In this document: positions 2,746 through 40,197 of the stretch, one piece after another | Numbering within the stretch: position 1 is the first letter of the stretch | Layout of the letters: each line of letters begins with the position of its first letter | Assembly: GCA_902766595.1 (NCBI GenBank) | Contig: CACXEJ010000072.1 | Coordinates: 4,709 to 68,708, forward strand | Direction: 5' to 3' | Source: Ruminococcus flavefaciens | Lineage (GTDB): Bacteria; Bacillota; Clostridia; Oscillospirales; Ruminococcaceae | Length of the DNA stretch: 64,000 nucleotides | The notes under the pieces: model-generated | Told to the model about the DNA's origin: nothing | Database searches by the model: none | What the model saw: the letters and a program-made list of their open reading frames with translations, nothing else | Translations under genes and position numbers: made by a program

Positions 2746-2753
2746 CCATACTT

Positions 2754-2781
2754 AAACGGGAGTGCGAAAGCACTCCCGTTT
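2754..2781 (+). terminator. Hairpin, probable intrinsic terminator
   Basis: AAACGGGAGTGC-GAAA-GCACTCCCGTTT perfect inverted repeat just after the stop codon. Confidence 0.7.
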
Positions 2782-2821
2782 GAGTAAAATATAAATTTAT
2801 TTCGCAATTACACTTTACCCC

Positions 2822-2850
2822 TTGACAATTATCTGATTTTGTAGTATAAT
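2822..2850 (+). promoter_or_regulatory. Sigma-A promoter of tRNA-Pro
   Basis: TTGACA (2822-2827), 17 bp spacer, TATAAT (2845-2850). Confidence 0.85.
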
Positions 2851-2861
2851 TGTTGTGTTAT

Positions 2862-2938
2862 CGAGGTGTGGCTCAGTTTGGTAGAGTACTACGTTCGGGA
2901 CGTAGGGGCCGCAGGTTCAAATCCTGTCACCTCGACCA
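2862..2938 (+). tRNA. tRNA-Pro (anticodon CGG)
   Basis: Acceptor stem CGAGGTG/CACCTCG, anticodon arm CTACG-TTCGGGA-CGTAG, T-loop GGTTCAAATCC, encoded CCA end. Confidence 0.97.
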
Positions 2939-2945
2939 TGCGGTT

Positions 2946-3082
2946 AGCCACCGCGGGCTTCCACGTTGACGCTCGCGGTGGCTCGCTTTATTTTTACAGA
3001 AAGCTTACTCTGCTTTCACTCACGGCACTATCATCTATTTCGTATAGCCTGCACAGAAGCGCCCGTCACTAATGTGACGGGC
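2946..3082. repeat. tRNA-trailing structured repeat, copy 1
   Basis: TTCCAC-containing hairpin (2946-2983), T-tract, conserved core, distal hairpin GCCCGTCAC-TAAT-GTGACGGGC (3061-3082); core 2982-3035 matches 39018-39071 at 46/54 ungapped positions (counted by hand). Confidence 0.85.
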
Positions 3083-3220
3083 TCAATTTATAATGAATAG
3101 TGAAAAATGTATAAATCACAAGGTTGCTTTTTCCGGACTTCTGAGGTATAATAAAAGTAATAAACAGCCCACACAGGGTGAGATTTCAATGCGGAAATTT
3201 AAAAAGGAGTATAGAGTCTT

Positions 3221-4774
3221 ATGAAATATGAACCGCTGCTGAAGCATCTGCTTAACTATGATGATATTGTCATTCAGGTGCATCACAATCCCGATGCCGA
3301 TGCTATCGCTTCCGGATTTGCACTTTGCCGCTATCTGAAAAAAAACGGCAAAAAGCCGCGCTTTGTTTACGCAGGAGAACGCGAGATCAGCAAGCCAAAT
3401 ATGCTCATTATGCTGAACAAGCTCGGCATTCAGGTCAGTCATATCAAAAACCTGAACGAAAACGGCGCTCTGCCTCAGCTTCTGATCACAGTCGACTGCT
3501 TTCACGGAGAGGGGAATGTCGGCAGCTTTGCGGCGGAAAACATAATCGTCATCGACCACCACCGTCTCCCGAAGGGAAAGGCAGTTCCGGAACACTCGGT
3601 CATAAAGGAGCATTACGGAAGCTGTGCGGCTGTCATCTATGAGCTGTTCAAGGAGGTCGGCTATGACCTCAACGAGGAACAGAACGTTGCAACGGCACTC
3701 TATTACGGCTTGTATATGGACACGGTAGGACTTTCGGAGATCAGTGAGCCTATGGACCGTGAGCTCCGCGATACCGCAAACTATAACAAAGCGCTCATAC
3801 GCCTGCTTTCAAATACCAATCTGACAGAGGAGGAGCTCAGCATTATCGGCAAAACGCTCAGTACCTGCAAATACTACCCGCATCCCGAAAGCTCCGCAGT
3901 TGCGTATGATCCCTCTCTTCCAAAACAGCATACTGCCTACACCATAGCAGACAACTGCGACCCTAATCTCCTCGGCATTATCTCTGATACTCTCATTCAG
4001 GTCGATATGGTTTCAGACTGCGTTGTCTGCTGTCCGTATCATACCGGATACAAGATCTCCGTCCGCACCTGTACGGACTCTGTCAAGGCACCGGATCTTG
4101 CCGCGTTCATTACCTACGGATACGGCGGAGGCGGCGGACATGATAACAAAGCTGGCGGCTGCATCGACTATCAAAGCTCACTGCCGAAGGATATTATGGA
4201 TTTTATTGCCGACCGTGTACGCGATTTCTTCACAAAGCCCGATGTTATTTTTGCCGGCAGGGAGCACCCCGATTTTTCCGGTGCAGAACGCTTCCGGAAA
4301 AAGGAGGTCGTTCTTGGCTATGTACCAACAGCATTGCTCTCGCCGGACGGAGAAGATATCCATATCCGGACGCTTGAGGGTGATATGACTGTGACACCTG
4401 CTCCGGACATCTATCTGATGGTCGGTGTAATAGGAGAGGTTTATCCCATCACGCGCGAGAAATTCGAGAAAAAATATGTCGCATGTGAGGGGACACCTGA
4501 TGTGTCGACATATTACTATCCGCCTTCAGCACGGATCGGTCAGAAAAAAACAGGCAGTCAGCTCTCGGAATATCTGCGCGGGTGCAAAGCCTCCGGAAAC
4601 AGTGAGATACTTGCAGTGAAGCTGAATAATTTTACGAAGCTCTATTCTCTCTGGGATCAGAAGCATTATATGTACGGCAACATCGGGGATTATATGGCTC
4701 ATCCTGCACATGATGCAAACGATCTCTATATCATACGCGGAGATATCTTTGCAATGACCTATGAAAGCTGCTAA
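3221..4774 (+). CDS. DHH/DHHA1 phosphoesterase with two C-terminal TLEG/PGDYG-like domains
   Basis: HHNPDADA, VDC, IDHH, MDT and GGGGGH..AGG motifs; C-terminal FRKK...TLEGDM...GVIGEVYP...FEKKY and GDYMA...DLYII..DIFAMTY; AAGGAG RBS. Confidence 0.8.
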   Translation: MKYEPLLKHLLNYDDIVIQVHHNPDADAIASGFALCRYLKKNGKKPRFVYAGEREISKPNMLIMLNKLGIQVSHIKNLNENGALPQLLITVDCFHGEGNVGSFAAENIIVIDHHRLPKGKAVPEHSVIKEHYGSCAAVIYELFKEVGYDLNEEQNVATALYYGLYMDTVGLSEISEPMDRELRDTANYNKALIRLLSNTNLTEEELSIIGKTLSTCKYYPHPESSAVAYDPSLPKQHTAYTIADNCDPNLLGIISDTLIQVDMVSDCVVCCPYHTGYKISVRTCTDSVKAPDLAAFITYGYGGGGGHDNKAGGCIDYQSSLPKDIMDFIADRVRDFFTKPDVIFAGREHPDFSGAERFRKKEVVLGYVPTALLSPDGEDIHIRTLEGDMTVTPAPDIYLMVGVIGEVYPITREKFEKKYVACEGTPDVSTYYYPPSARIGQKKTGSQLSEYLRGCKASGNSEILAVKLNNFTKLYSLWDQKHYMYGNIGDYMAHPAHDANDLYIIRGDIFAMTYESC

Positions 4775-4792
4775 TCACATAACCCAAAATCT

Positions 4793-4823
4793 GCGCTCCC
4801 TTCCACGGGGGGCGCTTTATTTA
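4793..4823 (+). terminator. Intrinsic terminator with TTCCAC loop
   Basis: GCGCTCCC-TTCCAC-GGGGGGCGC followed by TTTATTTA; near-identical to 38988-39009. Confidence 0.7.
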
Positions 4824-38783: not shown

Positions 38784-38860
38784 GTCCCAATAGCTCAGTA
38801 GGATAGAGCGACTGCCTCCTAAGCAGTAGGCCGGAGGTTCGACTCCTCTTTGGGACGCCA
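38784..38860 (+). tRNA. tRNA-Arg (anticodon CCT)
   Basis: Acceptor GTCCCAA/TTGGGAC, anticodon arm ACTGC-CTCCTAA-GCAGT, GGTTCGACTCC T-arm, CCA end. Confidence 0.97.
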
Positions 38861-38863
38861 CCG

Positions 38864-39116
38864 GCGAGCTGCCGGGCGCTTCCACGAAGCCGCTCGCAAG
38901 CTCGCTTATTTTTTTACGGAAATGTTACTCTCCTTTCGCTAATTGCACTGTCACCAATATTTTTACAGTTTGCACAATACAGCGCCTGTGCCCCCTTCCA
39001 CGGGGGCGCTCGTTTTACTCGCTTGCTTTTTACAAAAGGTTTACTCTGCTGTCGCTCATGGCACTATCATCAAATTTATAATACCCACAAAAACGCCCGC
39101 CACTGATGTGACGGAC
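38864..39116. repeat. tRNA-trailing structured repeat, tandem copies 2 and 3
   Basis: Units 38864-38986 and 38987-39116, each with a TTCCAC hairpin and the CTCGCTT..TTTTTAC...TTACTCT.CT.TCGCT...GCACT.TCA core; homologous to 2946-3082. Confidence 0.85.
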
Positions 39117-39138
39117 TTAAATAATATTGCAGCATCAT

Positions 39139-39170
39139 AAAAAGGACGCTCCAACAGGAGCGTCCTTTTT
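39139..39170. terminator. Bidirectional terminator (pta)
   Basis: AAAAAGGACGCTCC-AACA-GGAGCGTCCTTTTT. Confidence 0.85.
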
Positions 39171-39180
39171 AGCTTTGCGA

Positions 39181-40197
39181 TCAAGCCATACCAGCTGTAA
39201 TGATAGCCATCTTATAAACCTCATCAGCTGTGCAGCCTCTTGAGAGGTCGTTGATAGGAGCATTGAGTCCCTGAAGAATAGGACCGTAAGCCTCAAATCC
39301 ACCGAGTCTCTGAGCGATCTTGTAACCAATGTTACCAGCCTCGATGAGCGGGAAGATGAATGTATTAGCCTGTCCTGCAACCTTTGAATCAGGGCACTTT
39401 GTCTTTGCAACTTCAGCAGAAACAGCAGCGTCGAACTGGAACTCACCGTCAATAACGAGGTTCGGATCGAGCTGGCGAGCCTCGATAACAGCATCGTGGC
39501 TGAGCTGAACTGTGCCGCCCTTACCAGAGCCGTATGTTGAGAAGCTGAGTACAGCTACCTTAGGATCAATACCGAAGAAATCAGCGGTTCTTGCAGTCTC
39601 AACAGCAACCTCTGCAAGCTGTCTTGCAGCTGAGAGAACAACATTGCCGTCCTTGTCGAGTCTGTCAGAGTAGCTGAGATTGATAGCGCAGTCGCCCATA
39701 GCTATCTTCTCTTCCTTGCCATCCTTTTCTCTGAAGAGGATAAATGAAGAGCTTACGAGGTTTGAACCCTTCTTTGTCTTGATTATCTGAAGTGCAGGTC
39801 TTACTGTATCAGCTGTTGAATATGTAGCGCCTCCGAGAAGAGCGTCAGCCTTGCCAGCCTTAACGAGCATTGTTCCGAAATAGTTTGACTTCTGAAGAAA
39901 TGAACGGCACTCGTCCTCAGTCATCTTGCCCTTACGGAGCTCTGCCATCTGTGTAACGAGAGCATCCATTTCGGGATAAGTTACGGGATCAAGGATCTCA
40001 GCTCCGTCGATGTTGAAGCCGCCTGCTTTAGCAGCTGACTTTACTTCGTCAACGTTTCCGCAGAGGATCACGCCCATAAGACCTTCTTTAAGCAGTCTGT
40101 CTGCTGCTGAGAGGATACGGTTGTCGTTACCCTCGGTAAAAACGATAGTTTTCTTACTGGACTTTAAATTTGCGATAAGTTTGTCAAACATACCCAT
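39181..40197 (-). CDS. pta: Phosphate acetyltransferase
   Basis: IVFTEG, TVRPALQIIKT, LSFSTYGS, DGEFQFDAA, GNIGYKIAQRLG, NDLSRGC. Confidence 0.95.
   Translation of the reverse strand: MGMFDKLIANLKSSKKTIVFTEGNDNRILSAADRLLKEGLMGVILCGNVDEVKSAAKAGGFNIDGAEILDPVTYPEMDALVTQMAELRKGKMTEDECRSFLQKSNYFGTMLVKAGKADALLGGATYSTADTVRPALQIIKTKKGSNLVSSSFILFREKDGKEEKIAMGDCAINLSYSDRLDKDGNVVLSAARQLAEVAVETARTADFFGIDPKVAVLSFSTYGSGKGGTVQLSHDAVIEARQLDPNLVIDGEFQFDAAVSAEVAKTKCPDSKVAGQANTFIFPLIEAGNIGYKIAQRLGGFEAYGPILQGLNAPINDLSRGCTADEVYKMAIITAGMA

Follow-up and report, generated by a model that had tools for sequence, protein, structure and literature searches.

A genus-restricted family of modular repeats at the 3' ends of tRNA and protein genes in Ruminococcus

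Both tRNA genes that ARAGORN calls in a 64,000-nt stretch of the Ruminococcus flavefaciens genome (the window, to whose positions coordinates refer), tRNA-Pro(cgg) and tRNA-Arg(cct), are followed directly by copies of a ~95-125 nt repeat that we term the trailer unit. On balance we favor the view that these units are a genus-restricted family of modular, non-coding gene-end trailer repeats that are co-transcribed with the gene upstream and probably act as RNA. Membership in any named family is excluded by our tests; by class the unit is an interspersed mosaic intergenic repeat of the BOX, REP/BIME and RtT-like kind, within which its anchoring to gene ends and its apparent sequence-level constraint are unusual traits. 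Previously, a reading of the window made from its letters alone (the sequence-only reading) described a single structured element behind the two tRNA genes. That observation is real and far beyond chance, as the core at 2982-3035 matches 39018-39071 at 46/54 positions without gaps, whereas no unrelated 54-mer on either strand of the window scores above 29/54. However, it covered only part of the repeat system. A three-way alignment identifies three units in the window, one behind tRNA-Pro and a head-to-tail pair behind tRNA-Arg, and a direct-repeat finder spaces the matching blocks of the pair 116-117 nt apart. The proximal hairpin and the matching core that had been joined into one element behind tRNA-Arg therefore belong to units 1 and 2, respectively. 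The distal hairpins were both recovered, but instead of being part of the element they lie in a separate terminator module (module C) that closes arrays and also stands alone after tRNA-Gln(ttg).

Range of the family and placement of its units

The assembly that contains the window (G000; 2.47 Mb in 145 contigs numbered with the prefix C, 82% complete) holds ~20 full units and a few fragments as judged by nhmmer, and 23 matches to a covariance model built from 40 copies. At least one match to this model is present in 97 of 150 sampled genomes of the genus, many of which reach at least 27 matches, and a near-complete relative (G062) carries 43 units on one chromosome; the cultured strain R. flavefaciens ND2009 (L069) is also a carrier. 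None of the 149 other genera in a family-wide sample with one genome per genus has a match, and a pattern scan of GTDB species representatives produced true matches only in genomes of the R. flavefaciens group, with the remainder attributable to chance. In Rfam searches only tRNA reaches its gathering threshold in the window, and relaxing the limit to E<=10 brings no notable match onto a unit; at 16 other loci of the genome tRNA, 5S, T-box and lysine riboswitch matches were returned, none of which falls on a unit. Consistent with the sequence-only reading, which recognized no named element, the units match no Rfam family, including RtT (RF00391) and the HDV-like, hatchet, hammerhead and twister ribozymes. 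A literature search found no relevant named Ruminococcus repeat or bacterial tRNA-downstream repeat. Judged from these searches, the family is unnamed and confined to the genus.

Many units begin directly after the last nucleotide of an upstream gene. In the genome of the window at least eight of the 33 tRNA genes called by ARAGORN carry units directly after CCA (0-1 nt), namely Pro cgg, Arg cct, Arg ccg, Gln ctg, Met, Leu caa, Ala cgc and, as a fragment, Leu taa; the remaining tRNA genes are followed by plain terminators or sit in tight clusters, and many are located at contig ends. Elsewhere in the genus, tRNAs for Gln, Cys, Tyr, Arg, Leu and Ser have a unit starting 0-1 nt behind their CCA, and in several relatives units constitute the spacers of tRNA clusters (Gln-unit-Cys-unit-Gln), filling the whole interval between CCA and the start of the next tRNA. 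Another two units lie behind tRNA-like 3' ends that are called by neither ARAGORN nor Rfam (C118:130-172, locus L148; C27:1545-1590, locus L155), and the orthologue of the C27 unit in G062 (L181) also follows such an end. These ends, which comprise a T-arm, an acceptor 3' strand and CCA, may be 3' fragments of tRNA or tmRNA genes that integrative elements left behind, or they may belong to unusual tRNA-like genes.

Protein genes, core metabolic ones among them, host the same units. In the genome of the window they lie 0-1 nt past the stops of asd (aspartate-semialdehyde dehydrogenase), the pyruvate:ferredoxin oxidoreductase (PFOR) gene, glgA (glycogen synthase) and rpoD. Among the 30 best units of G062, to which all placement figures for that genome refer, six abut the stops of long open reading frames (ORFs) at 0 or -1 nt (vanY, pta, DUF711, guaB, purB and luxS), ~6 follow partial units, and the first G of one unit completes a TAG stop. 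The tRNA association proposed earlier is thus upheld as a strong enrichment at tRNA 3' ends, but units equally abut protein-gene stop codons. Hits away from tRNA genes, which the sequence-only reading had said would count against it, were found in part, as only three of the 30 G062 units follow a tRNA or tRNA-like end. Its more specific idea of tRNA-3' targeting is not supported, since units of the same family abut the stops of at least 10 different protein genes.

Wherever the upstream gene can be read, units share its orientation, with two exceptions. Orientation is not set by the replication strand, as units pointing either way are interspersed along 1.9-2.9 Mb of G062, and in the window tRNA-Arg and its units are on the + strand, with - strand genes on both sides and a GC skew that is negative throughout the region. 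(The same interval of G062 contig C1 holds 30 of the 43 units of the ~3.5-Mb chromosome, a clustering that could reflect origin proximity or highly expressed genes.) Canonical terminators are located downstream of the units at PFOR, tRNA-Arg and several other loci; where checked, the real terminator lies beyond the units. Because the lead hairpin of the unit starts at the first base after the gene, no promoter can intervene, and co-transcription with the upstream gene, which had been among the earlier suggestions, is very probable given this position.

Unit anatomy and sequence constraint

Each unit consists, in order, of a lead hairpin, block 1, a ~12-nt variable spacer, block 2 and a ~25-nt tail ending in ..ACA. 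Units are repeated one to four or more times head-to-tail, and module C closes some of the arrays. The lead hairpin is 15 nt long, typically GC-NNNN-AGC-N'N'N'N'-GC, with a 6-bp stem and a loop of AGC, TGC or TGA, and the sequence of its stem varies freely while pairing persists. In an alignment of 102 distinct copies 96% of the cells are paired, all six pairs covary and 190 cells contain double changes, a degree of covariation reached by 0/500 shuffles; slid controls are 18-56% paired, and a structure-neutral MAFFT alignment gave the same result. Block 1 has the form YTTCCACG, CGCTCG, 4-5 nt and CTCGCTYAC, whereas block 2, TCTGCTTTCGCTYACGGCAC, is the best-conserved part of the unit. The sequence TCGCTCAC is present twice per unit, and the unit body is 61% pyrimidine with C exceeding G. 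In one subfamily, found at tRNA genes, TTCCAC forms the loop of a GC stem that is followed by a T-run in a terminator-like arrangement, and in this stem the 3' strand of the lead hairpin is used a second time. The earlier claim of stems that differ in sequence yet stay paired applies to the 15-nt hairpin, but not to the TTCCAC-containing stem, which family-wide is paired in only 66% of cells, and the supposed invariance of TTCCAC is contradicted by TTTCAC, AACCAC and TGCCAC variants.

Beyond the lead hairpin, RNAalifold and an all-against-all column scan identified no further supported helix. A second helix or pseudoknot was considered and rejected, as the scan returned only the lead hairpin and a three-way linkage of columns 7, 17 and 37, which arises because in one subfamily the 3' strand of the hairpin pairs alternatively with the TTCCAC stem; a linkage of columns 37 and 70 belongs to no helix. 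The several covarying helices that characterize structured cis-regulatory or catalytic RNAs are therefore not seen, the 6-bp lead hairpin alone being supported. Other candidate functions were also discarded. One-nucleotide indels between units and stops in every frame rule out a coding frame, a weak 9/12 match to a sigma-70 promoter at 2966-2994 is unconserved across copies, and none of the likenesses to sigma-54, ECF, cre, parS, DnaA-box or boxA sites, assessed by eye, fits more than half a site or explains the polarity of the units.

The precise abutment of units and genes raises the question of whether the unit is an RNA processing signal, i.e. a new self-cleaving ribozyme or an RNase site that is cut at its 5' edge, which would define the 3' end of the upstream tRNA or mRNA and release unit-length RNAs from arrays and clusters. 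Its first base lies 0-1 nt from CCA or a stop at many independent loci, cluster units span exactly from CCA to +1 of the next tRNA, arrays are tandem at unit length, and the strongly conserved nucleotides outside helices resemble those of catalytic cores. However, there is one short helix only and no second helix or pseudoknot covaries, no ribozyme family of Rfam matches even at E<=10, a genus-restricted range is unusual for a ribozyme class, and the conserved blocks are G-poor and so offer few pairing partners. A processing signal has no structural support, and we judge it very unlikely.

Another explanation, that the units are only ordinary intrinsic tRNA terminators kept alike through gene conversion, would account for the GC stem, TTCCAC loop and T-run of the tRNA subfamily, and for solo hairpins at 4793-4815 and behind tRNA-Leu(taa) that a terminator scan scores as terminators. 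The conservation, however, extends into block 2, 60-70 nt beyond the T-run, a stem and T-run are missing from many units (e.g. at PFOR, in G062 and in tRNA-cluster spacers), and a separate canonical terminator lies downstream. Of the explanations that we considered this is the least probable, and we give it hardly any weight.

The sequence of the units appears to be held by selection. Between species, the 100 nt that follow the stop of PFOR and asd show 76-77% identity, compared with 55-59% at four-fold degenerate sites, and at glgA the corresponding values are 54% and 44%; the alignments show conserved blocks and diverging spacers and tails. The PFOR unit is 78% identical to its G062 orthologue but 52% identical to its best paralogue, indicating vertical descent. 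Dispersed units are 52-87% identical over 125 nt, with 87% for the best unlinked pair, and only tandem neighbors reach 94%; there is therefore no sign of a recent burst.

In the reading that we favor, units would be transcribed as 3' trailers, 3' untranslated regions (UTRs) or inter-tRNA spacers and would act in cis as RNA. The lead hairpin, joined in the tRNA subfamily by the TTCCAC hairpin and T-run, may serve as a 3'-end barrier or a partial (leaky) terminator, and the conserved single-stranded pyrimidine blocks are a putative binding platform for a protein or RNA. Old copies would owe their persistence chiefly to vertical inheritance under purifying selection and not to active transposition, with duplication in tandem, shuffling of modules and recombination-mediated allelic replacement as occasional events. 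The exact abutment need not mean targeted insertion, because deletion bias would strip neutral bases between constrained features; the zero-length spacers may be what such a bias leaves between two of them. The tRNA genes of the genus are themselves packed 0-6 nt apart. A bolder version, which we put forward tentatively, is that the units are an RNA punctuation signal of a new kind, a sequence-specific, largely unstructured, hairpin-anchored motif placed at the last functional nucleotide of tRNAs and mRNAs and read by a putative Ruminococcus factor. If so, this factor, which could be an RNA-binding protein, a termination factor or an RNase, would determine where the upstream RNA ends, how stable it is or how it is released, the units in tRNA clusters would be excised as discrete ~110-nt RNAs, and the family would be a "punctuation" system for bacterial transcripts instead of a set of junk repeats.

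Several observations weigh against the reading that we favor. Co-transcription and RNA action are read from position, and neither a binding partner nor a target was found; a short-word BLAST search of the conserved blocks against both genome strands for targets in trans gave chance-level 12-13-mers. The hairpin could equally form in single-stranded DNA: its wobble pairs comprise 17 of the G-U type and 7 of the A-C type, an excess that is only a weak hint that the sense strand may fold. Among the 30 G062 units ~5 follow a canonical terminator and 2 adjoin the start of a divergent gene, and one copy at locus L090 is inverted. Between G062 and UBA3730 the comparison at PFOR is reversed, with 64% identity in the element and 87% at four-fold sites, because a hairpin was inserted or swapped. 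Copies per genome range from 0 to >43, different subfamilies occur behind the same tRNA in different species, and presence is polymorphic between close relatives, the tRNA-Arg site being empty in the relatives G014 and G063. Turnover of this kind looks more like that of a selfish repeat than that of an essential signal.

Mobility, turnover and comparison with known repeats

The same turnover could stem from a non-autonomous mobile element, either MITE-like (miniature inverted-repeat transposable element) or REP-like, that is inserted at tRNA or gene ends by an enzyme encoded elsewhere, and this was the first proposal of the sequence-only reading. Filled and empty alleles exist at tRNA-Arg(cct), tRNA-Cys is followed by a unit in three genomes and by tRNA-Phe in a fourth, copy number varies widely among genomes, units form tandem arrays with mosaic modules, and the base that precedes the unit is A in 54 of 99 copies. 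Nonetheless, the expected hallmarks of mobility are missing. We found no terminal inverted repeats, as the units contain only local hairpins and their 5' (GC..) and 3' (..ACA) ends are non-complementary, and no flanking direct repeats indicative of target-site duplication. Junction flanks have only the final A of CCA, TAA or TGA in common, and for this reason the target is not sequence-defined. Near-identical copies at unlinked positions, which recent movement of a MITE or any other active mobile element would leave, were not seen, and orthologous copies such as that at PFOR are vertically inherited. A Y1/HUH transposase (PF01797) was not found in this genome (82% complete), is absent from 58 of the 97 element-positive genomes, including some with at least 20 units, and is present in 14 element-negative genomes; a RAYT/IS200-type partner was rejected, there being no dependence on Y1/HUH across the genus. 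The inspected loci contain no longer, gene-carrying copy, although no systematic search for long copies was made, and L090, which had been considered as one long element, instead consists of spaced, separate gene-end units around ordinary genes. The proposal of active mobility is therefore not borne out, and we consider insertion by an external enzyme an unlikely origin, though one that deserves more credit than a processing signal or an ordinary terminator.

The tRNA-Arg(cct) site illustrates how filled and empty alleles may arise. It carries two units here and ~1.3 units of another subfamily in a different genome (locus L102), and has none in G014, the closest relative, or in G063, both of which carry an ordinary terminator. 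An alignment with G014 and G063 reveals that the terminator at 39138-39171 is homologous to the one kept in element-free G014, and that in the "empty" allele the whole trailer is replaced, not interrupted. This fits homologous recombination, and allelic replacement via conserved flanks explains the site at least as well as transposition. At tRNA-Pro the empty-site comparison was uninformative, as the upstream region of five relatives that share the neighboring DHH gene is unrelated and without a tRNA. The DHH/DHHA1 gene itself (3221-4774) has an 86-90% identical orthologue in these five relatives, where similarity to this genome (window 2746-3220) begins only ~25 nt before the ATG; its upstream neighbors there fall into at least three contexts (two relatives are alike), none with tRNA-Pro or a unit. 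The gene thus lies in a rearrangement-prone spot.

A DNA-level site must also be considered, such as a recombination or attachment scar left by integrative elements at tRNA genes, also suggested earlier, or an array bound by a DNA-binding protein. One half of a parS site is similar to block 1, TTCCACG being the left half of the Bacillus parS consensus, TCGCTCAC is doubled in each unit, the lead hairpin is a 15-bp interrupted palindrome common to a second repeat family (see below), and two copies follow the tRNA-like 3' fragments at C118 and C27 (the latter with orthologue L181). On the other hand, no copy has identity or complementarity to its own tRNA beyond chance: the longest words shared by copying or by pairing average 5.5 and 4.8 nt for a tRNA and its own unit, compared with 5.4 and 4.9 nt for mismatched controls. 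The host tRNA 3' segment that an attachment-site remnant carries is thus not seen, and the idea of a recombination scar is not supported. Moreover, the hosts comprise more than 10 different tRNAs and at least 10 protein genes, units lie inside transcription units before the terminator, and their orientation is tied to the upstream gene, which is needless for a symmetric DNA site. A site of this type is highly improbable, marginally more so than a processing signal.

Small intergenic repeats are known in a few model bacteria and are poorly understood. The units fit the mosaic intergenic class in that they have a modular build with a repeatable middle and end modules, an intergenic location and a narrow range; this is a working class and not a sequence family. 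Among its members, the pneumococcal BOX (boxA-boxB(n)-boxC), RUP and SPRITE repeats have a narrow host range, slow turnover and co-transcription, and are described as extensively structured, with IS-like ends in the case of RUP (Croucher et al. 2011, PMC3049150). BOX elements and units alike are small, modular and non-coding, with a middle that can be repeated in tandem and a closing module distinct from it. Each has tens of copies, is confined to a species or genus, turns over slowly and is co-transcribed with neighbors (for the units, as judged from position). They have no sequence relation, however, and the units have a polarity and tightly adjoin the upstream gene at its 3' end; a conserved helix is lacking from most of the unit, in contrast to the three pneumococcal families, and the IS-like ends of RUP are unseen.

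REP sequences and their BIME-REPIN arrangements consist of a ~35-nt imperfect palindrome with a conserved 5' GTAG, occur as inverted pairs and are associated with RAYT, a Y1 HUH transposase. Like the REP/BIME repeats of enterobacteria and pseudomonads, the units contain GC-rich hairpins outside genes whose stems show compensatory changes, are found in 3' UTRs or intergenic regions and form mosaics of several motifs (for a review of REP/BIME repeats see PMC3184786). They differ in that they start with GC in place of GTAG, are arranged head-to-tail without inverted pairs, show no RAYT dependence, and have a hairpin of only 15 nt that is followed by ~75 nt of conserved linear sequence.

A parallel in position is offered by the RtT repeats (RF00391) behind E. 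coli tyrT, which are tandem, co-transcribed and released by tRNA processing; functional RNAs derived from tRNA spacers, e.g. 3'ETS-leuZ, provide a further precedent. RtT and units are both tandem repeats directly distal to a tRNA gene, but the units do not match RF00391 and follow many tRNAs as well as protein genes, and no evidence of a base-pairing target was found for them. Two other systems are alike in single respects: the neisserial mosaic elements (RS units and dRS3 repeats) have a short palindromic linker hairpin common to different repeat families, and the mycobacterial MIRUs form direct tandem arrays that follow the direction of the gene and begin at its stop codon. Their sequences are unrelated to that of the unit, and the small ORFs of MIRUs that overlap neighbors are not present in it. 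The family described here adds an undescribed repeat from an important rumen fiber-degrading genus. Its units break short-read assemblies, several copies in this genome being at contig ends, and, in predictions of 3' UTRs, terminators or small RNAs for Ruminococcus, they are worth masking or annotating.

Window loci, closing modules and neighboring repeats

The features of the two tRNA loci and of a solo hairpin are listed in Table 1. The solo hairpin at 4793-4815 is a unit fragment that presumably works as an ordinary intrinsic terminator, being scored as such by the terminator scan; in a hairpin census, GC-stem TTCCAC loops were nearly confined to the trailer-unit family. The terminator at 39138-39171 is common to the Arg array and the convergent pta gene (39181-40197, - strand), whose identity was established by a Pfam PTA_PTB match on its orthologue.

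Table 1. Trailer units and associated features in the window
Feature	Position	Strand	Remarks
tRNA-Pro(cgg)	2862-2938	+	host gene of first unit; CCA ends at 2938; ARAGORN; Rfam tRNA 64.2 bits
Trailer unit, Pro copy	2939-3055	+	nhmmer E=2e-40; covariance model 87.3 bits
Pro copy, lead hairpin	2940-2954	+	
Pro copy, alternative long stem	2946-2964 pairing with 2965-2983	+	inverted-repeat finding
Pro copy, CTTCCACG	2958-2965	+	then CGCTCG..CTCGCT, then T-run ending at 2995
Pro copy, block 2 (TCTGCTTTCACTCACGGCAC)	3009-3028	+	tail ends ..GCACA at 3055
Closing module C behind Pro copy	3056-3121	+	GAAGC, then terminator-like hairpin, then conserved tail TCAATTTATAATGAATAG...
Module C hairpin, Pro array: GCCCGTCAC-TAAT-GTGACGGGC	3061-3082	+	
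Solo TTCCAC-loop hairpin GCGCTCCC-TTCCAC-GGGGGGCGC and T-run	4793-4815	+	18 nt past DHH gene stop
tRNA-Arg(cct)	38784-38860	+	host of tandem pair; ARAGORN; between two - strand genes (ORF map)
Trailer unit, Arg copy 1	38861-38981	+	covariance model 83.2 bits; tail ends ..CAATACA
Arg copy 1, lead hairpin CCGGC-GAGCT-GCCGG	38861-38875	+	begins 0 nt past CCA
Arg copy 1, CTTCCACG	38879-38886	+	TTCCACG at 38880-38886; block 2 at 38929-38948
Trailer unit, Arg copy 2	38977-39089	+	covariance model 89.1 bits; block 2 at 39045-39064
Arg copy 2, lead hairpin	~38977-38991	+	re-uses tail of Arg copy 1
Arg copy 2, hairpin GTGCCCCC-TTCCAC-GGGGGCGC	38988-39009	+	CTTCCACG at 38995-39002
Closing module C of Arg array	39090-39138	+	AAAAC, then hairpin, then TTAAATAATATTG..
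Module C hairpin, Arg array: GCCCGCCAC-TGAT-GTGACGGAC	39095-39116	+	
Bidirectional intrinsic terminator	39138-39171	both	inverted repeat 100% complementary over 15 nt

Module C ends four arrays in the genome, at tRNA-Pro, tRNA-Arg, C118 and tRNA-Gln(ctg). Its solo copy lies 5 nt after the CCA of tRNA-Gln(ttg) (C32:11075-11096, - strand; CCA-GAAAC-GCCCGTCGCC..) and consists of GCCCGTCGCC-TAC-GCGATGGGC followed by TTAAATAATATTGAATA; it resembles a unit-free state of the trailers at tRNA-Pro, tRNA-Arg and tRNA-Gln(ctg). In other genomes, too, BLAST matches to module C by itself were obtained. A second repeat family has the same 15-nt lead hairpin (e.g. GCGGGGAGCCCCCGC) joined to a different body, and the system is on this account a mosaic of modules. 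The second body comprises, in this order, GGCAGTTTCGCGG.., a further hairpin and ..TTTTYCCGC; members of this family also start directly after a tRNA CCA and can precede a unit of the first (C56:448 and 537, C100:88, C114:3453 and C35:40 in G000; loci L006, L069, L082 and L101).

Other repeats accompany the units at individual loci. After glycogen synthase a tandem array of at least four units with a 111-nt period (C121:4031-4372 and C99:1-94) runs off two contig ends. In the R. flavefaciens metagenome-assembled genome RUG10802 (L015:1380-1520; L026:3900-4080) units alternate with a purine-rich repeat, GGGAGGAAAGGGAGAGGGAGAGGGAAAAGAG.., within a GGCGGC/GCCGCC stem, which is another unnamed repeat. 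A further common module, comprising ACTAAATTGATGACATGCCC and the terminator AAAAAAGCCCGAAATATCGGGCTTTT (C23:229-270, C54:40-106 and C35:4755-4797), follows tRNA-Arg(ccg) with its unit and also tRNA-Lys, and its reverse complement precedes the C35 unit. Finally, a short unit variant at C38:6241-6615 (L163) is composed of two other hairpins, TTCCACG and block 2, and lies shortly before a promoter-like site and a T-box leader (Rfam 128 bits).

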